Of a stretch of 64,000 nucleotides of DNA, positions 5,988 to 20,438 are shown in pieces. Both the position numbers and the translations under genes were made by a program. The stretch is from an uncultured Actinomycetota bacterium (GTDB lineage Bacteria > Actinomycetota > UBA4738 > HRBIN12). The notes under the pieces are model-generated. The model worked only from the letters and a program-made list of their open reading frames with translations. It did no database searches and was not told the origin of the DNA. The stretch's first letter is position 1; the number at the start of each line of letters is the position of its first letter. The stretch is from NCBI GenBank assembly GCA_963762015.1, contig CAVXJL010000018.1:14996-78995 (forward strand), written 5' to 3'.

Positions 5988-6482
5988 ATGCGCCGGCGAC
6001 ACCTGCGCGGCGTCATGGCGATCGAGCGGCAGGTGTACGCACGACCGTGGAGTCCCAACCTCTTCGCCGCGGAGATCACCGACCCGAACAACCGTTGCTA
6101 CCTCGTGGCTCGCGTCCACAAGGAGGTCGTCGGGTACGGCGGCCTGATCTGCTACGGCGACGAGGCCCACATCACCAACGTCGCCGTGGATCCGATGCAC
6201 CAGGGTCACGGGATCGCGACACGCCTGATGGCGGAGCTGATCCCGCAAGCGATCGAGATGGGCGCGCGGGCCGTGTCCCTCGAGGTCCGGGTGACGAACT
6301 GGGGGGCCCAGCGGATCTACGCACGCTTCGGCTTCCGGCCGGTCGGGATCCGGCGGAATTACTACCAAGAGGTGAGCGAGGACGCGCTGATCATGTGGAC
6401 CGACGACGTGAGGACCGCGGCGTACCGGGGACGCCTGGACGAGATCGAGGAGACCCTTCCCCAGGGCGTGCGCCCCGCGTGA
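5988..6482 (+). CDS. rimI: ribosomal-protein-alanine N-acetyltransferase (GNAT)
   Basis: Track ORF 5931..6482 trimmed to ATG 5988, just after the tsaB stop. GNAT acetyl-CoA motif VDPMHQGHGIATRLM. Canonical position between tsaB and tsaD. Confidence 0.75.
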   Translation: MRRRHLRGVMAIERQVYARPWSPNLFAAEITDPNNRCYLVARVHKEVVGYGGLICYGDEAHITNVAVDPMHQGHGIATRLMAELIPQAIEMGARAVSLEVRVTNWGAQRIYARFGFRPVGIRRNYYQEVSEDALIMWTDDVRTAAYRGRLDEIEETLPQGVRPA

Positions 6483-7486
6483 TCACCCTCGGCATCGAGA
6501 CATCGTGCGACGAGACGGCCGTGGCGGTCGTGGAGGACACGTTCCACGTCAGGACGAACCTGATCGCTCGCCAGGAGCACCTGCACGAACGCTACGGGGG
6601 GGTCGTTCCCGAGGTCGCGGCGAGGGCGCACGTGGAGTCGTTGAACCCCCTGCTGGAGCAGGCCCTGCGAGAGGCCGACGTCTCGTTCCGGACCATCGAC
6701 GGGGTCGCCGTCACCGTTGGCCCGGGGCTCGTCGGCGCCCTCCTGGTCGGGATGGCGGCGGCGAAGGCCGTTTCCCTGGCTGCCCGGATCCCCCTGATCG
6801 GCGTGAACCATCTGGAGGGCCACATCTGGGCGAACTTCCTGGAGCACGGGACACCGGATCCTCCTTACGTGGCCCTGGTGGTCTCGGGCGGCCACACGAT
6901 GCTCGTGCACATGCCGGAGGTGCATCGATACGAGCTGCTCGGGCAGACCCTCGACGACGCGGCCGGGGAGGCATTCGACAAGGTCGCGAGACTCCTCGGC
7001 CTCGGATTCCCCGGCGGCCCCGCCCTCGACGCGATGGCGGCAGAGGGCGATCCCACCGCCATCCGGTTCCCGAGGGCGATGGAGAGCTCGGGCGATCTCG
7101 ACTTCTCGATGAGCGGGCTGAAGACGGCGGTCCTTCGATACCTGCGAGCCGAGCAGGCGGCCGGCCACGACGTCTCCCTGCCCGACGTGGCCGCGTCGTT
7201 CCAGGAAGCGATCGTGGACGTGCAGGTTTCGAAGACGATCGCGGCGGCGAAAGGTCGCGGAGTGGACACGGTCCTCCTCGGTGGCGGAGTCGTGGCGAAC
7301 ACACGCCTGCGCGACCGGATGAGCGAGGCGGGAACGTCCGAGGGTCTGCGGGTCCTCTATCCGTCGTTCGAGTTGTGCACGGACAACGCGGCCATGATCG
7401 CGGCGGTCGGAGCGGCCAGGCTCGCTCGGGGAGAACGGTCCTCGCTGGACATCGCCGCAGACCCCAACCTAAGGTTGGCGTCGTGA
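6479..7486 (+). CDS. tsaD: tRNA N6-adenosine threonylcarbamoyltransferase TsaD
   Basis: Track ORF 6047..7486 trimmed to GTG 6479 (GTGA overlap with rimI). VITLGIETSCDETAVAVV...HLEGHI...VSGGHT are TsaD/Kae1 signatures. Confidence 0.9.
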   Translation: MITLGIETSCDETAVAVVEDTFHVRTNLIARQEHLHERYGGVVPEVAARAHVESLNPLLEQALREADVSFRTIDGVAVTVGPGLVGALLVGMAAAKAVSLAARIPLIGVNHLEGHIWANFLEHGTPDPPYVALVVSGGHTMLVHMPEVHRYELLGQTLDDAAGEAFDKVARLLGLGFPGGPALDAMAAEGDPTAIRFPRAMESSGDLDFSMSGLKTAVLRYLRAEQAAGHDVSLPDVAASFQEAIVDVQVSKTIAAAKGRGVDTVLLGGGVVANTRLRDRMSEAGTSEGLRVLYPSFELCTDNAAMIAAVGAARLARGERSSLDIAADPNLRLAS

Positions 7487-8427
7487 CGTCCGTCCTGGTG
7501 ACCGGGGGCGCCGGGTTCATCGGCTCGCAACTCGGAGAACGCTTGCTCGCGGAAGGTCATCGTGTCGTGTCCGTCGACGACCTGACGACCGGGAAGATCG
7601 CGAACCTCGTCGAGGCGCGCGGCTACGGCAAGGAGTTCTCGTTCTTCAACATGGACGTGCGCGCCGACGGTCTGGCGTCGCTGTTCGAACGGCACCGGCC
7701 CGAGGTCGTGTTCCATCTCGCGGCGCAGGCGGGCGTTCGGCCATCGCTGGACGATCCGGTTCACGACGCGAGCGTCAACATCATGGGGCTGCTGAACGTG
7801 CTGGAAGCCGCCGTGCACGTCGGCGCCCGCAAGGTGATCTATGCGGCGAGCGGCGGCACGATGTATGGGGAACCCCGCCGGCTTCCTACCAAAGAGACTG
7901 CCGCGCAGGGCTCCCGGCCCCTATCTCCCTACGGCGTGTCGAAGAAGGTGGCCCTCGACTACCTGGCGTACTTCCAGCGATACCGGGGGCTGGACTACAC
8001 GGCTCTCGGGCTCGCGAACGTGTACGGACCCCGGCAGGATCCGCTCGGCGAAGCGGGTGTGGTCGCCATCTTCACGGCGAAGATGCTGACGGGCGAGGCG
8101 CCCACGATCTTCGGCGACGGCAACCAGACCCGCGACTTCGTCTTCATCGACGACACGGTGCACGCCTTCGTCCAGGCGATCGATCGGGGATCCGGCAAGC
8201 TCGTGAACATCGGCACCGGGCTGGAGACGAGCGTGAATCACATCTACAAGGTGCTCGCCGAGCTCACCGGGTTCGCGGGGGAGCCGGAGCACGCGCCCCA
8301 GTCTCAGGCGGAGCTGCGGAGGATGGCGCTGGACATCTCGGCCGCGACGTCGGCGATCGCCTGGAAACCGTGGACACACCTCGAGGACGGTCTTGCGGAG
8401 ACGGTTGCGTACCTGAAGGGGGTCTGA
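7483..8427 (+). CDS. NAD-dependent nucleotide-sugar epimerase/dehydratase (GalE-like SDR)
   Basis: Track ORF 6505..8427 trimmed to GTG 7483. Rossmann motif VLVTGGAGFIGSQL and catalytic SPYGVSKKV (YxxxK). Confidence 0.8.
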   Translation: MTSVLVTGGAGFIGSQLGERLLAEGHRVVSVDDLTTGKIANLVEARGYGKEFSFFNMDVRADGLASLFERHRPEVVFHLAAQAGVRPSLDDPVHDASVNIMGLLNVLEAAVHVGARKVIYAASGGTMYGEPRRLPTKETAAQGSRPLSPYGVSKKVALDYLAYFQRYRGLDYTALGLANVYGPRQDPLGEAGVVAIFTAKMLTGEAPTIFGDGNQTRDFVFIDDTVHAFVQAIDRGSGKLVNIGTGLETSVNHIYKVLAELTGFAGEPEHAPQSQAELRRMALDISAATSAIAWKPWTHLEDGLAETVAYLKGV

Positions 8428-8475
8428 CTCACGAGAGGAGAATCCGGATACCCCCGGATGGCCTAGGCCGCTTGT

Positions 8476-8505
8476 TTGACGACCATCCCCCGCATGGGCT
8501 ACCGT
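8476..8505 (+). promoter_or_regulatory. candidate sigma-70-type promoter for the lasso precursor
   Basis: TTGACG (8476-8481), 18-nt spacer, TACCGT (8500-8505, fits TANNNT), about 37 nt upstream of the precursor ATG. Pattern match only. Confidence 0.3.
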
Positions 8506-8541
8506 GCCTGTTGAGGGAAGCGAGCGACCTGAGGAGGGTAG

Positions 8542-8703
8542 ATGACGTACGAATCCCCCCGGATCATCGATTTCGGGTCGATCCAGGCCCATACCTTCAC
8601 CAACACGGGACAGGTTCCGGGAGTTGGTCCGAAGGGCAAGGACTGGCGCGATTGCGCGTGGGACAAGTTCAACGAAGAGTCCTGCGGGGAGCACGTCTCC
8701 TGA
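8542..8703 (+). CDS. lasso peptide precursor (53 aa), not in supplied ORF track
   Basis: ATG 8542 preceded by GAGGAGGG (8531-8538); TGA at 8701-8703. Translation: MTYESPRIIDFGSIQAHTFTNTGQVPGVGPKGKDWRDCAWDKFNEESCGEHVS. The leader fits YxxPxLx3Gx5Tx. It lies directly upstream of the cyclase gene. Confidence 0.7.
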   Translation: MTYESPRIIDFGSIQAHTFTNTGQVPGVGPKGKDWRDCAWDKFNEESCGEHVS

Positions 8704-8721
8704 CGGTTCACCTTGAACGGC

Positions 8722-8751
8722 GAAAGGCGCAGCCCTGCGGCTGCGCCTTTC
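8722..8751 (+). terminator. GC-rich hairpin between precursor and cyclase (attenuator/partial terminator)
   Basis: GAAAGGCGCAGC (8722-8733), 6-nt loop, GCTGCGCCTTTC (8740-8751): a perfect 12-bp stem ending in TTTC, 19 nt after the precursor stop. Confidence 0.5.
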
Positions 8752-8785
8752 GTATGAGCTAGGTCACCCACGAGCGTCGATCGCC

Positions 8786-10567
8786 GTGGGCTCCCTCGCG
8801 CTCTTCATCGGTTCATCCGCATCCTCGGATCGGAGCACCGTCACGAGGATGCTCGAGGCCGCACCACACCGAGGGGTTCCCGGCCCTCCTGAGCGGATCG
8901 GCTGCGCCTCCCTCGGCGTGTCCCGCGCGGGGGGCCGCGATCAGGCGAGCGTCGAGAGCCATGACGGTCTCGCCGCCGCGTTCGTCGGTGTCCTCGACAA
9001 CGCCGGATCGCTCGCGGCCGAGCTCGGCCTCTCTGGGGGCCGGTCGGTGCCCTCCGCGGCGCGCATCTACCTCGAGGCCTGGCGCCGCTGGCGGGATCGG
9101 GCCCCTGCCCGACTGCGGGGACCATTCGCTGCGGTCCTGACGGATGGAGAGACCGTCCATGCCACGAGGGATCCGCTGGGGTTCCGATGTCTCTTCTTCC
9201 GCCGGGACCCGAAAGGCGTCTTCGTCGCAACCGAGTTGAAGCAGGTGATGGCGGGTTGCGAGCGACCGATGATGCCCGATCTCGACGTGATCGAGTCGAT
9301 CGTGTTCGGCGAGTACGACGACGACACACCGACCGCGATCGCCGGCTGCGAGCGCGTCCCTCGTGGGATGACGGTGCGCCTGCGGGGCTCCTCGGCCGCT
9401 CGACATCGGTACTGGGATCCGGGAGCGATCCTGGAGACGGGTCGGTACGCCGCATCCGAGCTGCCGGAACGATTCGATGACGTGATGGGTCGCGCTGCTG
9501 CGCGATCGTTGCTCGGCGACGACGTGCTCTCGCTCTCGGGCGGCACCGATTCCTCCGCCGTGGCGGCGTACGCGGCGCCTGCACATCTCGATCGGTTCGA
9601 CCGCCCACTCGCCGCCCTGTCCGTCGTGTACCCACAACTGCCCGCGGTCGATGAGCGCGAGGAGATCGAGCTCATCGCCGGGAGACTCGGGATCGAGCTG
9701 CACACCTACGAAGAGTCGGCCAAGACGCTCGACGAGGTCGACGTGTGGATGGGTGTGCTGGACGAACCGCTGCCACTCTTCTTCGTTGCGGAGTCGGCCG
9801 AGCATCTCCGACGGGCGCACGAGATGGGATATCGGAACATGCTCACCGGAGAGATGGCGGAGTGGGTCGTGGAGCGGAGGAGCTACCTGATCCCGCACTT
9901 GCTCTTGACGGGTCGGTTCGGTCCGGCGCTCGATCACCTCAGGCGCCAGCGCCGCGAGCACCGAACGTCGACACGAGGGATCGCGCGGCAGGTGGGAGCG
10001 GCGTTCGTCACGCCTCGGATGCGCAAGACGTGGGCGCGGATGCGGCCGGCGAGGATCGCGATCCCACCATGGGTGGATGAGACTCGTCTCCGCGAGGTGG
10101 AGGCTCGCTGGGCGACTCGGGCTCGGGACATGTGGCGCGGGTACCAGTCGGCGATCTTCCTCGGGCCGGATCTGCCGGCCGAGGCCGAAGACATCGTCGA
10201 AGCGGTGACCGACGTCACGGTCCGCCGGCCGTTCGCCGACCTCGACCTCGTCGAGTTCTTCCTCTCCCTCCCCGCGGAGCAGAAGTTCCCGGACACGCAT
10301 TTCAAGAGCCTGCTCCGGAGCTTCCTCCGCGGCCGGCTCCCCGATGCGTTGCTCGATCGGCCGCGGAAGGCGGTATTCAACGAAGCGGTGATGGCCCGAG
10401 CCGACCACGAGCGCCTTCGGCAACTCCTCATCGACCCTCCATATCGCTTGCGCGGGATCGACTATGGCATCTTGCGCGCGCGCCTGAACGCGGGGGACCT
10501 GGAGATCGGTGAGTACGAACGCGCGAAGAACCTCGCCGCCGTTCACGCGTACCTCGCCCGCTGGTGA
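8786..10567 (+). CDS. lasso peptide cyclase (asparagine synthetase B-like, LasC/McjC type)
   Basis: 593 aa. PP-loop ATP-pyrophosphatase motif LSLSGGTDSSAVAAYA. Asn-synthase-like architecture lacking the N-terminal Cys nucleophile. Adjacent to the precursor, B1, B2 and an ABC exporter. Confidence 0.85.
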   Translation: MGSLALFIGSSASSDRSTVTRMLEAAPHRGVPGPPERIGCASLGVSRAGGRDQASVESHDGLAAAFVGVLDNAGSLAAELGLSGGRSVPSAARIYLEAWRRWRDRAPARLRGPFAAVLTDGETVHATRDPLGFRCLFFRRDPKGVFVATELKQVMAGCERPMMPDLDVIESIVFGEYDDDTPTAIAGCERVPRGMTVRLRGSSAARHRYWDPGAILETGRYAASELPERFDDVMGRAAARSLLGDDVLSLSGGTDSSAVAAYAAPAHLDRFDRPLAALSVVYPQLPAVDEREEIELIAGRLGIELHTYEESAKTLDEVDVWMGVLDEPLPLFFVAESAEHLRRAHEMGYRNMLTGEMAEWVVERRSYLIPHLLLTGRFGPALDHLRRQRREHRTSTRGIARQVGAAFVTPRMRKTWARMRPARIAIPPWVDETRLREVEARWATRARDMWRGYQSAIFLGPDLPAEAEDIVEAVTDVTVRRPFADLDLVEFFLSLPAEQKFPDTHFKSLLRSFLRGRLPDALLDRPRKAVFNEAVMARADHERLRQLLIDPPYRLRGIDYGILRARLNAGDLEIGEYERAKNLAAVHAYLARW

Positions 10568-10604
10568 GCGGTCTCGAGACTCCCGCCGATATCGTGGGAC
10601 ACCG

Positions 10605-11588
10605 ATGGAACCGGTGATGACCGAGCGCAGGGACGAGGTTCCCATGGAGAGCTTTCCCGCGCTCGACGTCGTCGACGTCCACCGTCGCTTCCGTGACGTC
10701 GAGGCGCTCAAGGGCGTGACCCTCGAGGTGTGGCCCGGCGAGGTCCATGCGCTCCTCGGACCGAACGGCGCCGGGAAGACCACGTTGCTCCGGGTCCTCG
10801 TCGGTCTCCTGATCCCAGACACCGGCGACGTGGACGTCCTCGGCCAGCCGCTCGAGGTGATGACCTCCAGACGTTTCCGACGTTCCTTCGGCTTCGTCCC
10901 GTCGGGAGATCGCAGCTTCTACCTCCGGGTGAGCGGCTTGGAGAACCTCCTGTTCTTCGCGCGCCTCCACGGCCTGCCCAAGCGCACAGCGGTCACGCGA
11001 TCCCGCGAGCTCCTCTCGTTGGTCGGTCTGGAGGAGGCGGCGGGTCGCCGGGTGGGCCTGTACTCGCACGGGATGCAGAAGCGCTTGTCCGTTGCGCGGG
11101 CGCTCCTGACCGAGCCGCGGATCCTGTTCGTGGACGAGGCGACCCACGATCTCGATCCGCAAGGCGCCGAACGGATCCGAGAGCTGGTCCGTGAACAGGT
11201 TCGAGGCGGAGTGGCGGTCGTCTGGACGACGCAGCGGGTGGAGGAGATCCGCGGCTTCGCCGATCACGTCACCCTCCTACAGGCGGGAACGGTCAGGTTC
11301 CAGGGGACGGTCCCGCAGCTCCTCGCTTCGGTCCCCCGACGACGCTTCCTCGTGCGCGTGGGGCCAGGGAAGGATCCCGCGGTGATGAGGCGCGCGGTGG
11401 CCGGACTCGCCGAGCTCCGCGAGGGAAGCGATCCCGAACACGTCCTTCTCGGGATCACCGAAGGGGAGACCCTCGGGCGGGCGATCGCGGCGCTCGAGCG
11501 TGCGGATGTTCCGATCCTCGCCTGCACCGAGGAGGGCTCCGGCGTCGAGGAGGCCTTCCTCTTCCTGACGCGGGAGGATCCGCCCTGA
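10605..11588 (+). CDS. ABC transporter ATP-binding protein (lasso exporter/immunity candidate)
   Basis: Track ORF 10509..11588 trimmed to ATG 10605, downstream of the cyclase stop. Walker A GPNGAGKTT, signature-like YSHGMQKRLSVA, Walker B ILFVDEATHDLD. Confidence 0.85.
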   Translation: MEPVMTERRDEVPMESFPALDVVDVHRRFRDVEALKGVTLEVWPGEVHALLGPNGAGKTTLLRVLVGLLIPDTGDVDVLGQPLEVMTSRRFRRSFGFVPSGDRSFYLRVSGLENLLFFARLHGLPKRTAVTRSRELLSLVGLEEAAGRRVGLYSHGMQKRLSVARALLTEPRILFVDEATHDLDPQGAERIRELVREQVRGGVAVVWTTQRVEEIRGFADHVTLLQAGTVRFQGTVPQLLASVPRRRFLVRVGPGKDPAVMRRAVAGLAELREGSDPEHVLLGITEGETLGRAIAALERADVPILACTEEGSGVEEAFLFLTREDPP

Positions 11589-11704
11589 CCAGACCGCTCG
11601 ACACCGCCGCGCCGTCGTCCAGCGCACTCCGGGAAGAGGGTAGGAAGCTCTTCGCGTTCCTCCGCCGTGACGTCCTCGTCGCCTGGAGCTATCGCCTCCC
11701 GTTC

Positions 11705-12442
11705 GTGACGGACTGGGTCGCGATGGTGTTGCAGGCGGTCGTCTTCGGGTTCGTGGGAAAGCTGATCCCTCCCTCCTCCCTGCCGCGCTTCGGCGGTGAG
11801 GCGATCGACTATCTGGAGTTCGTTGCCGTAGGGATCGCGATCTCCTCGTTCCTCGCAGTAGGGCTCTCGCGACTCATGACCGTGATCCGGCAGGAGCAGG
11901 TGCAGGGGACCCTTGAGGCCCTCCTGCTCACGCCGACCGCCTGGTCCACGATCGAGATCGGCTCCGCGTTCTACGACATCCTCTACGTGCCGGTGCGAAC
12001 GGCGGTCTTCCTGGGTCTCACGGCGCTCCTCTTCGATGCGAACTATCGCCTCGGGGGCGTGGCACCCGCAGCTGCGGTACTCGTCGCATTCATCCCGTTC
12101 GTATGGGGACTCGGGGTGATCTCGGCCGCTGCGACCCTTACGTTTCGCCGTGGAGCGGGAGGTGTGGGGTTCCTCGTCTCGATCGCGACGGTCGGATCGG
12201 GTGCGTACTTCCCGCTTTCGGTGCTCCCGGGCTGGGTGCAGGCGGCCGCGGCGTACAACCCCGTCGCGATCGCGGTGACCGCGATGCGCGAAGCCCTCCT
12301 CGGGGGTTCGACGTGGGTCGACGTCTGGCCTTCCATCGTGCGGCTGATCCCGATGTCGGTACTGGCCATGCTCCTTGGGGCCGTCGCCTTCCGGGCCGCC
12401 ATCGCCCGGGAGCGTCGGCGCGGCACGCTTGGGCTCTACTGA
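11705..12442 (+). CDS. ABC-2 type transporter permease
   Basis: 245 aa with multiple TM segments. The in-frame upstream sequence (from about 11585) reads ...KLFAFLRRDVLVAWSYRLPF, which looks like the true N-terminus but has no ATG/GTG/TTG, so the start is uncertain. Confidence 0.7.
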   Translation: MTDWVAMVLQAVVFGFVGKLIPPSSLPRFGGEAIDYLEFVAVGIAISSFLAVGLSRLMTVIRQEQVQGTLEALLLTPTAWSTIEIGSAFYDILYVPVRTAVFLGLTALLFDANYRLGGVAPAAAVLVAFIPFVWGLGVISAAATLTFRRGAGGVGFLVSIATVGSGAYFPLSVLPGWVQAAAAYNPVAIAVTAMREALLGGSTWVDVWPSIVRLIPMSVLAMLLGAVAFRAAIARERRRGTLGLY

Positions 12443-13614
12443 GCGTCCCGTCTTGTCGTTGGCGATCGCCTCTCCTCGCGAGCCACCCGTCGAAGGAACG
12501 TTCGCTCATCCTCCCTCGTTCCCGAAGAGGTGAAGATCGCACCCGGCGTGGATCCCCGGTGGGTCATCGACCGCAACCGTCGGGAGGCGCGGTTGAGCAT
12601 CGCGCGCGCGGTCGCGACTCCCGAGTCGCGCGTGAGCTGCGCCCAGAACACCGATGGGCTCTCGCCGCCGACGGACCGTTCGGTCGGAAACCGCCGATCG
12701 AGCTCGTCGCTGAGCCGATGCCACACACGCGAGGCGAAGAGCGCGTCGAGTACGCCCTCCGGGACCGGCGCTCCGAGCGATCGACGGGCTCGATCGAGCG
12801 TGATGGCGATGCTCCGTCCCGCCTTCCAAGCTCGGGCGCGGCGTATCACCTCTTCCCATGGTGGCTGATCGACGACGACCGCGCGCTCGATGTCCTTGAG
12901 CCAGATCAGGCGGTCGCCGCCGGAAAGGGCGGCGTGTAGGGCCACGTGGAGCAGCGTGTCCACCGGGTCGAGGGTCGGGAGCGAGCGGCCCCCGACGTCC
13001 ACCTCCCGCGACCGCTCGAACAGGTCGTCCGTCGTGATCGCGAAGCCATCGCGGACGTTCTCGCGGTTCAGGAGATGCCAGTGGAGATCGGCGAGCGTGC
13101 CCATCGGCAGCTGGAGATGGAGCTGGCCACGTGTGTCCGCCCGGGTGAGCGCCCAGTTCCGGTCTAAGAGGAGGGAGCCTCCTTCCTTGAGGGCGTCGAC
13201 GGCACGCTCGAACGAGCCGGGCGGGACCAGGAGGTCGAGATCTTCGTACGTGCGCAGATCCGGCGAGGGATAGAGGTGTTCGGAGAGCACCGGCCCCTTC
13301 ACGACGAGGAACGGGATGGCGTCCGCGGACAAGCACTCACGCACGCCATCGAGGTCGGCCAGTACCCGCAGGTGGGCGGCCGTTCTCGTCGCGTGCGTGC
13401 GCTCGAGCGACGCGACGGCCTCATCGCTCACGGACACCCGGGACGTCCGCACGGCCGCCGCGAGGAAGGGGACCACCCGATGCCGTGCCGCGTGCTGAGC
13501 GAGCTGCGCCAGTTCGTCGTCGTCGAACTGGTCGAGCACACGTCGTCGGATCTCCTGCGGACGGTCCGCGGTACAGACCACCAGCGCCGCCCCAAGCGCC
13601 TGCCGGCTCTTCAT
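12436..13614 (-). CDS. nucleotidyltransferase family protein (NTP_transf_5 / PF14907-like)
   Basis: 392 aa. FLVVKGPVL...YEDLDLLVPP...DLHWHL pattern typical of the uncharacterised nucleotidyltransferase family found in kinase-type lasso clusters. ATGA overlap with B2. Confidence 0.7.
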   Translation of the reverse strand: MKSRQALGAALVVCTADRPQEIRRRVLDQFDDDELAQLAQHAARHRVVPFLAAAVRTSRVSVSDEAVASLERTHATRTAAHLRVLADLDGVRECLSADAIPFLVVKGPVLSEHLYPSPDLRTYEDLDLLVPPGSFERAVDALKEGGSLLLDRNWALTRADTRGQLHLQLPMGTLADLHWHLLNRENVRDGFAITTDDLFERSREVDVGGRSLPTLDPVDTLLHVALHAALSGGDRLIWLKDIERAVVVDQPPWEEVIRRARAWKAGRSIAITLDRARRSLGAPVPEGVLDALFASRVWHRLSDELDRRFPTERSVGGESPSVFWAQLTRDSGVATARAMLNRASRRLRSMTHRGSTPGAIFTSSGTREDERTFLRRVAREERRSPTTRRDAQ

Positions 13615-14018
13615 CCGAACCTCGCCAGCTCCTCATGCGACCCTTTGCCCGGCGGCGGCCCGACGTCGACCCGGTCGATCTCGATCCACGCATGCGCCTC
13701 GTGGTCGCGAGGATCGTGAGGCAGCCCGAGCACGAGCTCCGCCGAGTCTCCCTGCGCCCGAAGGAGTCGGAAGAGCACGAGTGCGTTGACGAGACACCTC
13801 GGTCGGAACGGGCCGAGGTGCAAGGTTCCGTGGACGATCCGAGACAACCGTCGGGGCTCGACCCTTCCCGATCGATGGCCGTCCTCACCCCCGAAGCTCT
13901 CCACGACCGTCGGCAACGGGGCTCGTCGGAGCCGCCAGTGAACGAGGAGGAACGTGCCGCCGATCCGTGCTGCGAGGCGTGCTTTCTTCGCGAGCGGCAG
14001 CGCGCCTCCGGGACTCAC
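13611..14018 (-). CDS. lasso peptide leader peptidase B2 (transglutaminase-like Cys protease)
   Basis: Track ORF 13611..14180 trimmed to GTG 14018 (GTGA overlap with the kinase stop). Catalytic-type motifs RPRCLVNALVLFRLL and HEAHAWIEID. Confidence 0.8.
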   Translation of the reverse strand: MSPGGALPLAKKARLAARIGGTFLLVHWRLRRAPLPTVVESFGGEDGHRSGRVEPRRLSRIVHGTLHLGPFRPRCLVNALVLFRLLRAQGDSAELVLGLPHDPRDHEAHAWIEIDRVDVGPPPGKGSHEELARFG

Positions 14019-14941
14019 CGGGCCTGCACCCGCTCGAGCTCGTAGATGACCGCGTCGAGGGCGTCGTAGCGCATGGGCCGATGTAGGTTCCAGATCGGCA
14101 CGCGCGCTGCGAGCTGGGTGACCCCCTCGAAACATCTCCTCCGATCCTCGTCGGTCGGGGTGCTGAAGGACAAGGCCCACAGGTCGGGGATGGCCTCCTC
14201 GGGAGAGACCCGTTCGAGGCGAGGATCCCCCGAGTTCGCCTCCCGGAGCAGCACGATCGCGTCGGCAGGGACCGGATCCCCGGTCCCCCGGAGCGTCGGT
14301 TCGATAGCGAGATGGACCCGCTCATCGACATGCAGAACGCGCCCGCCGGGAACTTCCGGCGATCGATCGGGGTCGCGTCGGATCCGGAGCATCGCTGGTC
14401 CCGGAACCACGTCGATCCCTTCATCGGAACGGCGAAGGCATGTGGAGTCCTCGCTCAACAGGCGATATCCCGCGCTCACGAGCGCGGCCGCGAGGGTCGT
14501 CTTGCCGAAGCGGCCGGGTGCTCCGAACACGACCGCGCGCCCACCGCTCTCGACGCTCGCGGCATGGAGCGAATGATCTCCTCGCGAGAGGAAACACAGG
14601 ACCGTCGGGATCCCCCAGAGCCGTTCCTCTCTCAGCAAGGGAGGCGCGTCACGAGGAACCTCGATGGAACCGGCGACTGGATCGATGTGGAAGGAGCCGA
14701 TATCGGTCACCCACAGACGCCATCGGTGATCCTCTCGGAACAGGCGCGAGGTGAAGGGGCGGTCGGGCCGGGGGAGCCACTCCCGGACCGGTTCGCCGCT
14801 CTCGCCGGCATCGGTGCGCCGGGTCTCGGCAACCTCGAGCACGCCGGTCGCTCCCCCTTCGCGAAGGTATTCGAAGGCGAGGTCGGACCGCAGCTCGTAG
14901 CCGAAGCAGACGTCGTATGCCATCCCGGTTCCGGGCGCCAT
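14015..14941 (-). CDS. HPr kinase/phosphorylase-related kinase (lasso precursor Ser kinase candidate)
   Basis: Track ORF 14015..15124 trimmed to ATG 14941 (alternative ATG 14923). P-loop region RAVVFGAPGRFGKTTLAAALVSAGYRLLSEDS resembles the HprK C-terminal domain. Confidence 0.7.
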   Translation of the reverse strand: MAPGTGMAYDVCFGYELRSDLAFEYLREGGATGVLEVAETRRTDAGESGEPVREWLPRPDRPFTSRLFREDHRWRLWVTDIGSFHIDPVAGSIEVPRDAPPLLREERLWGIPTVLCFLSRGDHSLHAASVESGGRAVVFGAPGRFGKTTLAAALVSAGYRLLSEDSTCLRRSDEGIDVVPGPAMLRIRRDPDRSPEVPGGRVLHVDERVHLAIEPTLRGTGDPVPADAIVLLREANSGDPRLERVSPEEAIPDLWALSFSTPTDEDRRRCFEGVTQLAARVPIWNLHRPMRYDALDAVIYELERVQAR

Positions 14942-15110
14942 CTGCCCGGACGCACACCCTACGCGACGCCCAGATGGGTGGCGGCGTAGATCGGTGGGCT
15001 GGGCGCGGCGGGAGGTCCTTCCGCGGAGGCCGCCCTCGTCGATAGCATGGGCGGCTGGTTGCCCGGTCGTCGGGCGACGGGTGGTCGGGCGAGCGGAGAA
15101 GCTGAGGCCG

Positions 15111-15449
15111 ATGATCGAGAGCACGGAGCTGATCGTCCGGAACCCTCGGGTGGAGTACCGGAAGCTCGCCGATGGGGGCGGCGCCGTCCTCCTGAATCTC
15201 GATACGGCCGCCTACCATGGGCTGAACCAGACCGGGTCGGTGATCTGGGAGACGGTGGGGGACGGCAAACCGATGGGCGAGGTCGTTCCTCAGGTCGCCG
15301 CGATGTTCGAGGATGCGCCCCCCGCGCTGGCGCTGGAAGTGACCGGGTTCATCGAAGATCTCGTCGAGCGAGATCTCCTCCGCGTCCACCACGTCGATCC
15401 GCAGGCGTCGACCATGCCCGGGAGCGTCGAGCGAGGTTCCTCGCGATGA
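15111..15449 (+). CDS. PqqD-family RiPP recognition element (lasso B1)
   Basis: Track ORF 14994..15449 trimmed to ATG 15111. VEYRKLADGGGAVLLNLDTAAYHGLNQTGSVIWETV...FIEDLVERDLL is the PqqD/RRE pattern. Transcribed divergently from the K-B2-NTase operon. Confidence 0.8.
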   Translation: MIESTELIVRNPRVEYRKLADGGGAVLLNLDTAAYHGLNQTGSVIWETVGDGKPMGEVVPQVAAMFEDAPPALALEVTGFIEDLVERDLLRVHHVDPQASTMPGSVERGSSR

Positions 15450-15452
15450 CGC

Positions 15453-17075
15453 GTGGCAGGTGGTGTTCGGATCACCCTCGGTCCCGGACGTCGGGGGCAC
15501 ACGACGGGATCCACTGACCCACCGGCCGAGAAGGGCCCCGCAGGCAGACGACATGGCCTCGCGCGCACCTCCAGCGGGATCGCGGCGCTCGCAGCAGCCG
15601 GCGTCCTCACCGGCTTCGCCGTCGACGCGACGATCGCCGCTCTCTTCGGTGCGAGCGGGCGGACCGACGCGTTCTTCATCGCGGCCACGATCCCGTTCGC
15701 ACTCGCCTCCGTTCTCCTCGCATCCGCGAACCAGGCACTCGTGCCATTGATCGATACGTGGTTCCGCGAGCACGGATCCGATGGGGCGCGGGATCGTGTC
15801 GAGGGATTGCTCGGGACGTCGTTGGTCATCGCGACCGCCGTCGCCACCCTCGGCGTCCTCCTCTCGTCGGTCCTCCCGTCGATCCTGGCCCCGGGCGCCT
15901 CGTCCGCGACGAAGGCGTCCGCCTCTCTGATCACGGCTCTGCTGTTCTTCACCGTGATCACCCGTGTCGGCGCCGAGGTGATCCGCGCGCTCCTGAACGC
16001 GCGATCCTCCTTCGCGGCTCCTGCCTCGATGCCGATCGTCGAGAACCTCGCGGTCCTCGCGACGACGCTGCTCCTGGCGGGCCGTCTCGGCGTGCCTGCC
16101 GTGGCGATCGGCTACGTCGTCGGAGGGATCCTCCAGTTGGGATACATGTACGGGGTCGCGCGAACCCGAGGGCTTCGCCTCCGGCCGCGGGTTCGCTTCC
16201 GCGATCCGGAGATCCGGGTCGCGTTCCGACTCCTCCGGCTCCCGCTCGCGGGGACGGGGCTCAACATGTTCGCCCGTGCCGTCGAGCGATTCCTTGCGTC
16301 GTTCCTGCCTCCCGGCTCCATCACGATCCTGAACTACGCCTGGGTCGTGGTGAACAGCCTCGGCGGGGCGATCTTCTTCCGGAGCATCGTGGTCGCACTC
16401 CTGCCACGCCTGTCGGAAGCTCGTCACGATGACGATGTCAGCCGTCGGATCGTCGGAGACGGGGTCAGGTTGATGGCGCTGATCTCGATCCCGCTCACCG
16501 GGATCGTCATCGTGCTCGCGGAACCGCTGGTGAGTCTCTTCTTCCAGCGCGGAGCTTTCAACGCTCCGTCGGCGGCTCTGCTCGGGTCGGTCCTGGCGAT
16601 CTACGCGCTCCAGTTCCCACTCGACGCGATCACGCGTGTCTTCCAATCGTTCTGGTACTCACGACTCAACACCGTCGTCCCGTTCCACAACGTTGCCCTC
16701 GGTGTGGGGCTGGATATCGCGCTCGCGGCAGCCCTCGTCTGGTCCTTCGGGATCCGGGGCCTTGCGCTGGCCTACGTGCTCTCGAGCATCGGCAACCTCC
16801 TTCACGGCTCCCTCACGGTGGATCGGCGGATCCATCTCCCCATCGCTCCGCTCCTTCGCATCCTCGGAAAGATCGTCATCGCCTCTGGGCTCGCGGCCGC
16901 GGCCGCGGCGGTGACCCTCGCGACGCTTCCCGCATCCAGGGGGTTGATCCAGCGATCGGTCGCTGTGGCGCTTCCTGGGGCGGTGGCGTGCGCGGTTCTG
17001 GTGCTCGCCCTGCTGGCACTCCGCGTTCGGATCTGGAGATCGATGCTGAGTCAGGATGAGGCGCCGCCGCACTGA
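15453..17075 (+). CDS. MOP-superfamily flippase (MurJ/MviN-like)
   Basis: 540 aa, polytopic. N-terminal FGASGRTDAFFIAATIPFAL is the MurJ signature. Starts 3 nt after the B1 stop; the true start may be further downstream. Confidence 0.7.
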   Translation: MAGGVRITLGPGRRGHTTGSTDPPAEKGPAGRRHGLARTSSGIAALAAAGVLTGFAVDATIAALFGASGRTDAFFIAATIPFALASVLLASANQALVPLIDTWFREHGSDGARDRVEGLLGTSLVIATAVATLGVLLSSVLPSILAPGASSATKASASLITALLFFTVITRVGAEVIRALLNARSSFAAPASMPIVENLAVLATTLLLAGRLGVPAVAIGYVVGGILQLGYMYGVARTRGLRLRPRVRFRDPEIRVAFRLLRLPLAGTGLNMFARAVERFLASFLPPGSITILNYAWVVVNSLGGAIFFRSIVVALLPRLSEARHDDDVSRRIVGDGVRLMALISIPLTGIVIVLAEPLVSLFFQRGAFNAPSAALLGSVLAIYALQFPLDAITRVFQSFWYSRLNTVVPFHNVALGVGLDIALAAALVWSFGIRGLALAYVLSSIGNLLHGSLTVDRRIHLPIAPLLRILGKIVIASGLAAAAAAVTLATLPASRGLIQRSVAVALPGAVACAVLVLALLALRVRIWRSMLSQDEAPPH

Positions 17076-17126
17076 CGATCCAGGACGACTCCGATCGGCC
17101 GATGGCTCGCGCTTACACTCGGTTCG

Positions 17127-18089
17127 ATGGCCGATCACCGCGATCATGAGACCGAGCCGGACCCGGCATCCACCCCCGAATTGCGCTGGCAACTCTTCCG
17201 GGTGCGTCGTCACGTCGGATGGGTAAGGACCCAAGGCCTGCGACGGCTCATCGAGGAGGATCAGCTCGACCCCTTCGCACGGATCCCCGTCGCGATCCGG
17301 CGAGCACGGTGGCGGCTGGCGCACGATCATCGGCCGAACGCGGTGCCGGTCTTCCTCGTGGGGCTCCAGAGATCCGGTACGAACATGCTGACGAGGGGGC
17401 TGGAACGCGCACCGGAGTTCGAGGTCCACAACGAGAACGACCGCAGCGCGTTCACGCGGTTCCGCCTGCGGGAAGAGCCGGTGATCCGCACGATCGTCGA
17501 GGGAAGCAAGCACGCGTTCGTGCTCTTCAAGCCTCTCTGCGATTCCCACCGCACCGCTGAGCTCCTCGACGCGCTCACGACTCCGAGCCGGGGTCTCGCG
17601 ATCTGGGCATACCGCGGCTATCGAGGCCGCGTTCGGTCGAGCGTCGCCAAGTTCGGTGACTCGAACCGGCGGGCGCTCCGGCGGATCGCTGCGGGGAACG
17701 GGTCTCACCTCTGGCAGGCCGGGGGCCTCAGCGAGAAGAGTCTCGCGTTGATCCGGACCTTCGACTACGACAGGATGACGCCGGAGTCGGCCGCGGCGCT
17801 GTTCTGGTTCGTGAGGAATTCGTTGTTTTTCGAGCTGGCCCTCGACGGTCGCTCGGACGTGGCGCTGGCGTCGTACGAGGCGACGATCGAAGCGCCCGAG
17901 GCCTCGATGCGTTCCCTCTGCGCCTTCGTCGGGCTGCCCTATAGGGACGTGCTGATCGAAGGGATCGAGCGCCGTGATCCCGGTGACCCGGGCGTCGTCA
18001 TCGACGGGCGGATCAGAGAGCGGTGCGAGGGCCTCCAATCCGCCCTCGACGCGGCGATGGCTCGCCGCACGATCCATCCCGACGGGTAG
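17127..18089 (+). CDS. sulfotransferase family protein
   Basis: 320 aa. PAPS 5'-phosphosulfate-binding-loop-like VFLVGLQRSGTNMLTRGL near the N-terminus. Size and layout match PF13469-type sulfotransferases. Confidence 0.6.
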   Translation: MADHRDHETEPDPASTPELRWQLFRVRRHVGWVRTQGLRRLIEEDQLDPFARIPVAIRRARWRLAHDHRPNAVPVFLVGLQRSGTNMLTRGLERAPEFEVHNENDRSAFTRFRLREEPVIRTIVEGSKHAFVLFKPLCDSHRTAELLDALTTPSRGLAIWAYRGYRGRVRSSVAKFGDSNRRALRRIAAGNGSHLWQAGGLSEKSLALIRTFDYDRMTPESAAALFWFVRNSLFFELALDGRSDVALASYEATIEAPEASMRSLCAFVGLPYRDVLIEGIERRDPGDPGVVIDGRIRERCEGLQSALDAAMARRTIHPDG

Positions 18090-18149
18090 AGTGACCACGC
18101 GCGCCCGAGGGGGCGCGCATCCCGTTTCCGTCATCGACGGGAGGGCGGC

Positions 18150-20438
18150 GTGGAGATCGCAGAATACGTACGATTCGTCCTCCGGCGCTCGAGGGTCGTC
18201 GTGGTGATCGTGGTCGTCGCGGCGGCGCTCGCCACCATCCTGTTCCTCGCCCGGCCGCCGTTGTACACGGCGACCGCCACGGTGGTCGTCCCGACATCGA
18301 CCGGTTCTTCATCTTTGATCGCCGCGGTGTCGCAGTCGATCAGTGATTTCCAGGCGGCCTTGACCACGGATCGCGTCGCCGTGCGCACCGCGGATGCCGT
18401 GGGGGTCTCTCCCGGCGACGTCAAGGCGGGGCTCGAGCCGACCCGCGTCTCGAACAGCGGTGTCGTGGAGGTCCGATTCACGCACGGCGATCCGGATGTC
18501 GCAGAGGACGCAGTCGTCTCCGCAGCGCGGGAAGCGCTGATGCTGCTCCTGGGATCGCGACTCGAACCGTTCGACGCCCAACTCGCGTTCGCCCGCGACC
18601 GCGCCGAGTCCGCGGGAACGGACATGCTCGCGTTCCAGCAGGAGACCGGGTACCTCGATCCCGCGCAGGTCTTCCAACGGCAGTCCAGCAGGATGGAGGA
18701 CCTGCGCGACGAGATCGGTGTGGCTCTCGCCGACGGGGACGACGCGCTCGCTGACGAGCTCCAGGCGCGGCTCGACGAGAAGGAAGCGAAGCTGATCCCG
18801 GAGCGATCCGAGTACGAGGACATCGCGGCCGAACAACGTCGGGCACAGAGGGCACTGACGGCTGCGGAGATCGCCCGAGATGGGGCCGCTTCATCCCTCG
18901 CCAGCATCGAGGAAGCCTCCTCGTCCGATGGAAGCGTGATCTCTTCCACGGATGCATCGAAGGTCTCGAGGACGCAGACTTTCATCAGGATCGTCGTTCC
19001 CACCGTGGTGATCGCCACGATCCTCGCCGTCGCGTTCGTCGTGCTCCTTGAGGTGATCCCCGGAGGGCCCGCGTCCCCCTGGGCCCGGCTCCGGAGACGA
19101 CTGCCGGTCGAGGATCGATCCCCGGCCTCTCGGCTCCAGGCGATGGTAGCCCGACGGCACGGCGACGAGACCCAGGGCGAGCCGGGACCCGTCCACCGAC
19201 TCGACCATCCCGACGACCACGATCTCGCTCCCGTTCCGGATCCGATCGACCCCGCGGCGCCTCTCGAGGCCGGGCTGGCGACTCTGCGCGGTGCACCAAG
19301 CGCTCCGGACCGAACCTCCGGCGGTCGATCGACCGAACGGCCGATGAAGCCGAGGCAGCGGGTCGACCCAGCGGATGGCTCGATGGCGGCCCAGGAGGCC
19401 AAAGCGGCCGCGCCAGAGGCCAGGCCGGCGAAGGCGGCCCAGGAGGCGAAGGCAGCCCAACAGGCGCACGAGGCCAGGGTGACGATCGCGACTGCTGAGG
19501 CCGCCAAGAGGGCCGAGGAAGCCAAGAGGGCCGAGGCCGCTCAGAGAGCGGAGGTCGCAAGGAGGGCCGAGGAAGCCAAGAGGGCCGAGGAAGCCAAGAG
19601 GGCCGAGGAAGCCAAGAGGGCAGAGGCCGCTCAGAGAGCGGAGGTCGCAAGGATGGCCGAGGCCGCTGAGAGAGCGGAGGTCGCAAGGAGGGCCGAAGCC
19701 GCCAGGAAGGCCGAGGAAGCGAAGAAGGCCGAGGAAGCGAAGAAGGCCGAGGAAGCGAGAAGAAGGCCGAGGAAGCGCCGAGGGCCGAGCGAAGCGAAGA
19801 AGGCCGAGGAAGCGAAGAAGGCCGAGGAAGCGAAGAAGGCCGAGGAAGCGAAGAAGGCCGAGGAAGCGAAGAAGGCCGAGGAAGCGAAGAAGGCCGAGGA
19901 AGCGAAGAAGAAGGCCGAGGAAGCGAAGAAGGCCGAGGAAGCGAAGAAGGCCGAGGAAGCGAAGAAGGCCGAGGAAGCGAAGAAGAAGGCCGAGGAAGCG
20001 AAGAAGGCCGAGGAAGCGAAGAAGAAGGCCGAGGAAGCGAAGAAGCAAGCCGCCGACTCAGTGCCGGCCAAAGAGATGAAGGGTTCCACAGAGAAGAGGT
20101 CTATATCGACGGCCGACGAAAGAGTTTCGACCGTCGAACGGGTAGGCGGACGCCAGCGATCGGTGGATGAGGGATCCTCCAGTCCCGCTCGGGAGCATGA
20201 GAGCGAGCCGGTATCCAAGGGTGGCGGCAAGCAACCTTCCGGATCCAGGGGCACCAGCTCTAAGGGTGGCGGCAAGCAACCTTCCGGATCCAGGCGCACC
20301 AGGCGAGCAGCGCCCCCTGGGCCGGCTGCCGGGCCTTCTGAAGATCGCCAGTCGTCTGTCGAGTCCCAGGTCCCGCCGCCGAGCGTCGCCGGATCTGACG
20401 AGGATCCGTCATCGGCTCCCACCAGCGCTCGCCGCTGA
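18150..20438 (+). CDS. Wzz/polysaccharide co-polymerase-like protein with long E/K/A-repeat C-terminal tail
   Basis: 762 aa. N-terminal Wzz-like segment with TM1 (VVVVIVVVAAALATILFLA, then PLYTATATVVVP), a coiled periplasmic-type region, and TM2 (FIRIVVPTVVIATILAVAFVVLL). This is followed by about 430 aa of low-complexity sequence including AEEAKK repeats. Confidence 0.6.
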   Translation: MEIAEYVRFVLRRSRVVVVIVVVAAALATILFLARPPLYTATATVVVPTSTGSSSLIAAVSQSISDFQAALTTDRVAVRTADAVGVSPGDVKAGLEPTRVSNSGVVEVRFTHGDPDVAEDAVVSAAREALMLLLGSRLEPFDAQLAFARDRAESAGTDMLAFQQETGYLDPAQVFQRQSSRMEDLRDEIGVALADGDDALADELQARLDEKEAKLIPERSEYEDIAAEQRRAQRALTAAEIARDGAASSLASIEEASSSDGSVISSTDASKVSRTQTFIRIVVPTVVIATILAVAFVVLLEVIPGGPASPWARLRRRLPVEDRSPASRLQAMVARRHGDETQGEPGPVHRLDHPDDHDLAPVPDPIDPAAPLEAGLATLRGAPSAPDRTSGGRSTERPMKPRQRVDPADGSMAAQEAKAAAPEARPAKAAQEAKAAQQAHEARVTIATAEAAKRAEEAKRAEAAQRAEVARRAEEAKRAEEAKRAEEAKRAEAAQRAEVARMAEAAERAEVARRAEAARKAEEAKKAEEAKKAEEARRRPRKRRGPSEAKKAEEAKKAEEAKKAEEAKKAEEAKKAEEAKKAEEAKKKAEEAKKAEEAKKAEEAKKAEEAKKKAEEAKKAEEAKKKAEEAKKQAADSVPAKEMKGSTEKRSISTADERVSTVERVGGRQRSVDEGSSSPAREHESEPVSKGGGKQPSGSRGTSSKGGGKQPSGSRRTRRAAPPGPAAGPSEDRQSSVESQVPPPSVAGSDEDPSSAPTSARR
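19497..20046 (+). repeat. in-frame coding tandem repeats (18-nt unit GCCGAGGAAGCGAAGAAG = AEEAKK, with AKRAEE and 21-nt variants)
   Basis: Directly visible periodic repeats. They are read in frame by the 18150..20438 CDS. The antisense ORFs here (LLRFLGLL..., FFASSAFF...) are artefacts of the same repeat. Confidence 0.9.
20217..20303 (+). repeat. 45-nt tandem duplication inside the Wzz-like CDS
   Basis: AAGGGTGGCGGCAAGCAACCTTCCGGATCCAGG(G/C)GCACCAG occurs twice with a period of 45 nt. It encodes KGGGKQPSGSRGTSS / KGGGKQPSGSRRTRR. Confidence 0.85.

Follow-up and report, generated by a model that had tools for sequence, protein, structure and literature searches.

The closest described counterparts of the system considered here are lasso peptide clusters that carry a kinase gene. 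In the Bacillota, paeninodin and pseudomycoidin are phosphorylated on their C-terminal Ser by a homologue of HprK (PMC9266682, PMC6993621, PMC8498205), and in the pseudomycoidin (psm) system this is followed by further hexosylation through the nucleoside triphosphate (NTP) transferase PsmN (PMC6993621). Genes of the kinds A (precursor), B1 (leader recognition), B2 (leader peptidase), C (macrolactam cyclase), D (transporter), K (kinase) and N (nucleotidyltransferase), together with a sulfotransferase, have already been described for kinase-type lasso clusters found in Bacillota and Proteobacteria (PMC8498205), and in the Bsf cluster of Bradymonas sediminis K and N stand beside A, B1, B2, C and D, with an 8-residue ring that joins G1 to D8 of the product (PMC10368454). 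Characterised clusters of the kinase type come from Bacillota and Proteobacteria, and the literature cited here offers no description from Actinomycetota. We analysed a stretch of 64,000 nucleotides (nt) from an uncultured Actinomycetota bacterium (assembly GCA_963762015.1, contig CAVXJL010000018.1, positions 14,996 to 78,995; hereafter the window), in which a preliminary description had proposed that a 53-codon open reading frame (ORF) at 8542–8703 encodes a lasso peptide precursor.

The window contains the same gene kinds as the paeninodin and psm clusters, namely A, split B1 and B2, C, a transporter, an HprK-like K, an N of the NTP_transf_5 type and a nearby sulfotransferase (Table 1), where the likeness of N and C to PsmN, PadeC and PsmC is one of gene kind and family and not of sequence comparison. 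Common to the precursors are a Ser at the end and a leader of the form YxxPxL...T. The window differs from these two clusters in its host, an uncultured member of the Actinomycetota and not of the Bacillota, in its exporter, which is a two-component ABC-2 system (DrrAB-like), and in the distribution of its genes over three transcription directions. It differs also in the core of its precursor, which carries two conserved Cys and the motif DKFxExSC and offers no solution to the rule commonly applied in lasso mining, Thr at position −2 and an acidic residue at core position 7–9. Relative to the known kinase-type clusters, the new elements are accordingly the host phylum, the ABC-2 exporter, the Cys pair with DKFxExSC and a core that departs from the canonical rule.

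We conclude that the ORF at 8542–8703 is very likely the A gene of a kinase/nucleotidyltransferase-type lasso cluster, that is, a cluster for a ribosomally synthesized peptide that undergoes post-translational modification (RiPP), which spans about 8.5–15.5 kb and possibly reaches to 18 kb. That the small protein is the precursor of this cluster we hold with high confidence, since it accompanies the enzyme genes through several gene orders and since each locus holds one ORF of its family. What stands of the preliminary proposal is thus a conserved precursor gene of a lasso-type cluster; membership among the canonical lasso peptides is not established, because the combination of Thr(−2) and an acid at 7–9 was tested for and is absent from the peptide.

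The gene itself is well defined, and its coordinates, product, ribosome-binding site and distance to the cyclase are all as originally given. Translation from ATG 8542 to TGA 8701–8703 yields MTYESPRIIDFGSIQAHTFTNTGQVPGVGPKGKDWRDCAWDKFNEESCGEHVS, the GGAGG core of the Shine-Dalgarno-like GAGGAGGG occupies 8533–8537 and ends 4 nt 5' of the start codon, and 82 nt separate the stop from GTG 8786 of a 593-codon Asn-synthase-like ORF. The GC content by codon position of the small ORF (0.53/0.47/0.81) is coding-like in a window of 68% GC. Searches with the peptide returned 24 close homologues, mostly of 52–59 residues (up to 77) and with E values from 4e-30 to 8e-12; a first profile, run against 1.84 billion representatives, found 77 matches, and a second profile search at E ≤ 0.01 gave 274 proteins, nearly all of 45–65 residues. 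Those of the 274 for which a source name exists all go by 'hypothetical protein', and a Pfam domain is absent from all that are listed. The precursor family is an unannotated one of at least 270 small proteins (counted as sequence clusters) with no database name, and motif strings such as DKFGEYSC and GSIADHTF are absent from the searchable literature. For codon comparison we used near relatives, uncultured Actinomycetota genomes whose cyclases are 89–93% identical: the window ORF shows 8 synonymous and 0 non-synonymous codon differences to the locus L008, and L008 shows 9 and 0, respectively, to L009. The small ORF is under purifying selection, and selection, homology and synteny together rule out a chance ORF.

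The preliminary description had suggested looking for a conserved small ORF next to orthologous cyclases, and such an ORF is indeed present. Homologues stand beside C, B1 and K in six genomic contexts, among which several gene orders occur; five of these contexts include B2, four include N, and all but L018 include a two-component ABC/ABC-2 exporter; in L018 one ABC protein of fused size takes the place of the ATPase/ABC-2 pair. The order in L001 and L002 is A-C-D1-D2-B1 with N-B2-K on the other strand, L003/L004 and L005/L006 have a single operon A-D1-D2-B1-C-K-B2(-N), and further arrangements are found in L017, L018 and L019. In Gaiellales genomes, the cyclase of which is only 42% identical, a divergent homologue (MKYAAPVVVDFGSISDHTFVHTNSQGHVVHKDHITCETDKFGEFSCGGHGGSMDS) is encoded immediately upstream of the cyclase gene and on the opposite strand. 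In the L017 cluster, whose precursor P0162 is a short member that conforms to the ring rule, B2 and NTP_transf_5 were not seen within 8 kb, a situation reminiscent of pseudomycoidin, the production of which is reported to be possible without B1/B2 (PMC6993621). A hidden Markov model (HMM) of the family detects a single such ORF in the window and likewise one in each related locus.

These gene orders bear on the reading that the small protein is not a substrate but a conserved regulatory, immunity or accessory peptide, the true precursor being encoded elsewhere. A role of this kind would agree with the failure of every curated peptide model to recognise the peptide and with the uninformative names of its database copies. 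However, the protein carries the full motif of a leader that binds a RiPP recognition element (RRE), no second ORF of this kind occurs in the window or in any related locus, its gene has remained with the enzyme genes despite several rearrangements, and the protein's hypervariable-plus-conserved layout is typical of RiPP precursors, all of which makes a non-substrate role highly improbable.

The core lasso enzymes B1, B2 and C all lie within the window, together with the ABC exporter, the HprK-like kinase, the NTP_transf_5 protein and the sulfotransferase, and the enzyme trio expected of a lasso cluster is present in the form of a B1 RRE, a transglutaminase-like B2 and a C protein without the glutaminase nucleophile. 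Residue 2 of C is not a Cys, and the PP-loop, SGGTDS, is kept; of 112 homologues none has Cys2 and 110 have the PP-loop. In database sources, homologues of the cyclase go by the name 'asparagine synthase(-related)' only. B2 scores 46.8 against NF033537, above the cut-off of 33. K, B1 and B2 align with BsfK, BsfB1 and BsfB2: K shares 28% identity with BsfK over 216 residues, with the His (LHA/LHG) and the P-loop (GKT/GKS) aligned and an acidic pair that reads ED in the window and DD in BsfK, B1 shares 29% identity with BsfB1 over 65 residues and gives sub-cut-off matches to the lasso PqqD models NF033530/NF033536, and the Cys and His of B2 align with those of BsfB2. There is a 4-nt overlap between the N gene and the B2 stop. 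Sequence searches of the PDB with C, K and N returned no matches at the thresholds used.

The canonical lasso leader follows the rule YxxPxLx3Gx5Tx with Y at −17 (PMC10368454). The residues to which the preliminary description had assigned this pattern were exactly those that recur across the family: if the cut lies after F19, Y3 falls at −17, P6 at −14, I8 at −12, G12 at −8, T18 at −2 and F19 at −1, so that the leader spacing is exactly canonical for a cut that follows H-T-F. Among 167 non-redundant members the P, G and T are present in all because the selection pattern fixed them; the informative counts are those of Tyr (148), Asp (163), His (158) and the Phe that follows T (163). The family consensus over the first 17–19 residues is Y-E-x-P-x-[VI]-x-D-[FYHL]-G-S-I-x-x-H-T-F. 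A comparison with lasso leader models, likewise suggested at the outset, had a mixed result. The window peptide itself had no match, and 26 of 52 relatives matched the lasso-leader model NF033521 below its threshold (12–17 bits, cut-off 19), always on the Y-x2-P stretch. The bridging member P0097 reached 31.9 bits against the lasso model NF033528, the cut-off of which is 33.

Downstream of the leader the family shares one layout, in which a hypervariable segment of 9 to ~25 residues leads to a conserved K-D and is followed by K-D-x3-C-x2-D-K-F-x-E-x-S-C and a short tail. D41, E45 and S47 are near-invariant across the family and more conserved than D34. In the shortest members (HTF followed by GGLGPPRKD, TAGGTPGKD or AAGSTPAKD) the Asp stands exactly at position 9, as the canonical rule has it, and their Gly/Thr/Pro-rich nine-residue segment ending in Asp resembles the ring of paeninodin, AGPGTSTPD. 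From the alignment, the window subfamily looks like this short-member scaffold with six extra residues in the ring region.

The two Cys of the peptide, initially noted as a possible disulfide, behave as a pair. The Cys count is even in 162 of 162 members (two in 117, four in 30, none in 12 and six to ten in 3), and C38 (8653–8655) and C48 (8683–8685) are lost together across the family. A second pair obeys the same logic: members with a Cys in the variable segment, in many cases at the third residue past HTF, without exception have an additional one within DKFxExS, at position 42, 44 or 46. We thus regard C38/C48 as a putative disulfide, as this co-variation suggests.

Where the ring lies is a separate matter. 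After a cut at T18-F19 the core, TNTGQVPGVGPKGKDWRDC..., would start with T20 and meet its first acid only at position 15. When T, I or V is accepted at −2, G, A, S or C at +1 and D or E at 7–9, the peptide has a sole solution, V25/G27/D34. We tentatively prefer the corresponding ring Gly27-Asp34, for which the cut between P26 and G27 has Pro at −1 and Val at −2 and would yield an 8-residue ring in a core of 27 residues; it would entail a leader seven residues longer than the canonical one, with Y at −24. This choice is supported by the Val/Ile documented at −2 in kinase-type lasso precursors (PMC10368454): a non-Thr aliphatic residue is accepted there in Bsf, comparable to Val25, and Ile/Val(−2) precursors are also known from Acidobacteriaceae and Sphingomonadales (PMC10368454). 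The parallel with BsfA has its limits, as BsfA combines Ile at −2 with a canonical Y(−17), ends in Asp and has no Cys pair, whereas the window peptide has Ser as its last residue and none within the putative ring. Within the close subfamily (alignment A1), every member has G27, G29, P30, G32, K33 and D34, and the ring varies only at positions 28 and 31. The preceding TNTGQVP is nearly invariant, with N21, V25 and P26 unchanged throughout, and its equivalent is hypervariable in length family-wide. In P0009/P0010 one residue is inserted between F19 and V25, and the G27-D34 spacing is unchanged.

Several results weigh against the lasso assignment or against this ring in particular. Pfam and NCBIfam scans of the window peptide gave no match even at E ≤ 10. 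The cyclase scores 108.4 bits against the lasso cyclase model NF033535, for which the cut-off is 525, and a similar 127 bits against the generic AsnB model TIGR01536, and the kinase scores 53.6 bits against TIGR04352, for which the cut-off is 200. Thr at −2 with an acid at +7 to +9 has no solution anywhere in the window peptide, and an acid at 7–9 after the conserved Thr is found in only 40 of 162 relatives. In several members that keep PGxGPxGK, Asp34 is replaced by Asn or Gly, D41 and E45 then being the only acids, so that Asp34 is not a universal acceptor. Gly27 fails as a unique mark of the ring start: Gly is enriched equally at D34−7 (0.43) and at D34−5 (0.41), which points to a GxG[P/T]PxKD motif and not to a ring-start signal. 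Finally, a Cys at the third residue past the leader co-varies with a C-terminal Cys, which implies that at least some subfamilies retain the segment after F19 and speaks against a long extension of the leader. An AlphaFold2 model of the precursor built on a 108-sequence alignment (mean predicted local distance difference test score 66, predicted template modelling score 0.23) is too weak to place the N-terminus and shows only a short helix at 15–18 and a two-residue bridge 39–40/46–47.

The cut could instead lie at its canonical place after T18-F19, so that the mature peptide would be T20–S53 (34 residues) and closure would fall outside the 7–9 rule, either as a 15-residue ring to Asp34 or on Asp41/Glu45, with the structure held by Cys38–Cys48 and not by steric threading. 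The exactly canonical leader spacing (Y −17, P −14, I/V −12, T −2) speaks for this arrangement, as do the short members with Asp at position 9 after HTF, the even Cys counts, with a Cys at the third residue past the leader matched each time by one in DKFxExS, so that the segment is seemingly kept, and the stronger conservation of D41, E45 and S47 than of D34. Yet natural lasso rings have been reported only at 7–9 residues, and a change of ring size by one residue strongly cuts production (PMC10368454; PMC13352647). The +1 position after HTF is moreover very variable (T in 69 members, then I, V, A, G, Q, D and others), and the near-invariance of TNTGQVP in the close subfamily is what would be expected of a recognition segment. 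On balance we consider the canonical cut rather unlikely for the window peptide. Its extension to the whole family, which would then be cut canonically and cyclised outside the rule, with rings of 10–25 residues or closure on Asp41/Glu45, is similarly doubtful; the products would be disulfide-locked lariats with phospho- or glyco-modification, a so far undescribed topology derived from the lasso. As a separate candidate, the Cys three residues after the leader was tried as residue 1 of the core and set aside: it fits ~18 of the ~32 xRC members against ~10 of 32 for the canonical start, and a start of this type is of no help with the window peptide, where Thr22 to Asp34 spans 13 residues.

The invariant D41 and the ~90% conserved K33 would also suit a cut after Lys33, with the hypervariable segment as a spacer, an 8-residue ring Asp34-Asp41, a 20-residue product and a ring-to-tail Cys38–Cys48. 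Position 34 and D41 span 8–10 residues across the subfamilies, including those with Asn or Gly at 34, and a core of 20 residues is a typical lasso size. This cut is nonetheless improbable: no precedent is known for a core that begins with Asp or Asn or for Lys at −1, the co-varying Cys segment would be thrown away, leaving odd Cys counts in many members, and the canonical position of T18 would be disregarded. Other or mixed outcomes beyond these three cuts take the remaining probability.

Disulfide-bearing lasso peptides fall into classes I and III, with a ring-to-tail bond (siamycin, BI-32169), and class IV, with an intra-tail bond (LP2006). Under the preferred Gly27-Asp34 ring, Cys38–Cys48 would lie wholly in the tail and the window peptide would resemble class IV, a likeness of disulfide layout and not of sequence. 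These classes follow the Thr(−2)/7–9 rule, whereas the window peptide does not, and they are not known to be associated with K or N genes.

The preliminary description had also drawn attention to the terminal Ser and to an HprK-like kinase about 5 kb away; both are in place, with Ser53 as the last residue and the K ORF 5.3 kb downstream of the precursor ORF on the minus strand. Ser is the last residue in 107 of 167 members, and a further feature of the family is an [S/T]P end in 31 of 167. More conserved than the terminal Ser is Ser47, a position held by S in 157 and by T in 5 of the 162 motif members, the motif having been matched on [S/T] there. BsfK phosphorylates an internal Ser, Ser3 of its core (PMC10368454), and by analogy we infer that the phosphorylated residue would be either Ser53 or the near-invariant Ser47.

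Taken by analogy with the described clusters, biosynthesis may proceed as follows. The PqqD protein B1 would bind the leader (residues 1–19, YxxPxIx3Gx5TF), and the HprK-like K would phosphorylate a Ser of the linear precursor, either of the two just named; the NTP_transf_5 protein may then extend the phosphate, as PsmN does with a hexose. The cysteine protease B2 would take off the leader, the glutaminase-less C would adenylate an Asp or Glu side chain and close a macrolactam with the new N-terminus, the ABC-2 transporter would export the product, and the Cys38–Cys48 disulfide would form. The threaded topology of the product is likewise putative.

Table 1 Coordinates of the precursor gene, its parts and the surrounding features, in the window unless a related locus is named
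Feature	Position	Strand	Basis
Shine-Dalgarno-like sequence	8531–8538	+	read from sequence
Precursor peptide gene A, 53 codons + stop	8542–8703	+	translation, homologues, selection, synteny
Leader, residues 1–19, YxxPxLx3Gx5Tx	8542–8598	+	position statistics, 167 members
Residues 20–26, TNTGQVP, leader extension or mature N-terminus	8599–8619	+	alignment A1 (close subfamily)
Gly27-Asp34, GVGPKGKD, candidate 8-residue macrolactam ring, Val25 at −2	8620–8643	+	sole rule-conforming cut
C-terminal motif C38-x2-D41-K-F-x-E45-x-S47-C48	8653–8685	+	family statistics
C-terminal Ser53, candidate phosphorylation site	8698–8700	+	analogy with paeninodin, pseudomycoidin (PMC9266682, PMC6993621, PMC8498205)
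Hairpin, 15-bp, GC-rich, between A and C	8720–8753	+	RNA fold
C, Asn-synthase-like, putative macrolactam cyclase	8786–10567	+	PF00733 3.8e-28
D1, ABC transporter ATPase	10509–11588	+	PF00005 4.5e-29, DrrA-like match
D2, ABC-2 permease	11585–12442	+	PF01061; N-terminal comparison with L001
N, NTP_transf_5 nucleotidyltransferase-family protein	12436–13614	−	PF14907 1.8e-40
B2, transglutaminase-like Cys protease (putative leader peptidase), GTG 14018 start	13611–14018	−	NF033537, PF13471
K, HprK-related kinase, probable start ATG 14923	14015–14923	−	TIGR04352 1.6e-14
B1, PqqD-type RRE, divergent from K	15111–15449	+	PF05402 2.5e-10
MurJ-like flippase	15453–17075	+	PF03023
Sulfotransferase-family gene, possible tailoring	17127–18089	+	PF13469
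Wzz-like gene	18150–20438	+	PF02706
Glycan gene stretches	window 15453–20438; L003 2783–9839; L017 1628–5770, 10101–11321; L018 11802–12482; L019 646–1449, 8286–9029		

The hairpin between A and C belongs to a strongly folded region (8700–8790; −51.5 kcal/mol, z = −5.6) and has counterparts 3' of A in relatives, in L015 with one compensatory change from A-U to G-C and in L001 and L007 with unrelated sequence. A promoter and terminator scan of 8300–8900 called nothing, and no T tract accompanies the hairpin, which may act between the two genes to stabilise or to attenuate the transcript. By comparison with L001, the true start of D1 is probably near 10570–10600. In D2 the conserved N-terminal ~40 residues (…LREEGRKLFAFLRRDVLVAWSY, as in L001) lie upstream of the first in-frame ATG, GTG or TTG (11705), and translation may begin at a non-canonical codon, for example CTG 11585 (overlapping the stop of the ATPase gene), unless the sequence contains an error. 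The 187-bp divergent intergenic region at 14924–15110, between K-B2-N on the minus strand and B1-MurJ-sulfotransferase on the plus strand, is likely a shared regulatory region.

Upstream of A lie the housekeeping genes tsaE, tsaB, rimI and tsaD and a sugar epimerase gene. The 640-codon ORF at 6505–8427 is not a single gene; it joins an open frame to a real sugar epimerase/dehydratase gene that starts at GTG 7483, and tsaD (N-terminus VITLGIETSCDET) begins at 6479 and is read in a frame other than that of this ORF, an arrangement also seen in L001 and L007. In one related lineage, represented by L001 (6560–9788) and L002 (3590–6818), genes for a LuxR-type response regulator and for an S8 subtilisin-like peptidase that includes a Calx-beta domain lie directly upstream of A, and neither is found in the window. 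The Gaiellales homologues (L012–L014, ~7640–7863) have a His-rich variable segment, xH[T/V]NxxGHxVHKDH, which is conserved within the group and suggests metal binding.

Glycan or envelope-polysaccharide genes flank the cluster in five of the six independent contexts, L005 being the only one without them, and comprise a MurJ-like flippase, Wzz, Wzy_C, GT2, GT4, PMT_2, Bac_transf and a polysaccharide deacetylase. In L017 a GT4 glycosyltransferase gene adjoins the kinase-like gene. These flanking genes may reflect a link of the phospho- or glyco-modified peptide to glycan assembly or merely a shared genomic island; given their recurrence, products of the family might be tied to cell-envelope or exopolysaccharide assembly.

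The locus adds an uncultured Actinomycetota lineage to the kinase-type lasso clusters and exposes a precursor family that has had no name. As most precursors of the family fail the Thr(−2)/acid(7–9) mining rule, lasso mining tools probably miss them or split them wrongly. The family constitutes a natural series of insertions in the ring region, from 9 to ~25 residues, on one scaffold and with co-varying Cys pairs, and it makes testable how far lasso proteases and cyclases tolerate displaced cleavage sites and larger rings. If the product is an ordinary lasso peptide with an 8-residue ring and an extended leader, the cluster would be of use as a genome-mining lead, though a routine one; a ring outside 7–9 residues, if it proves true, would raise its value sharply.

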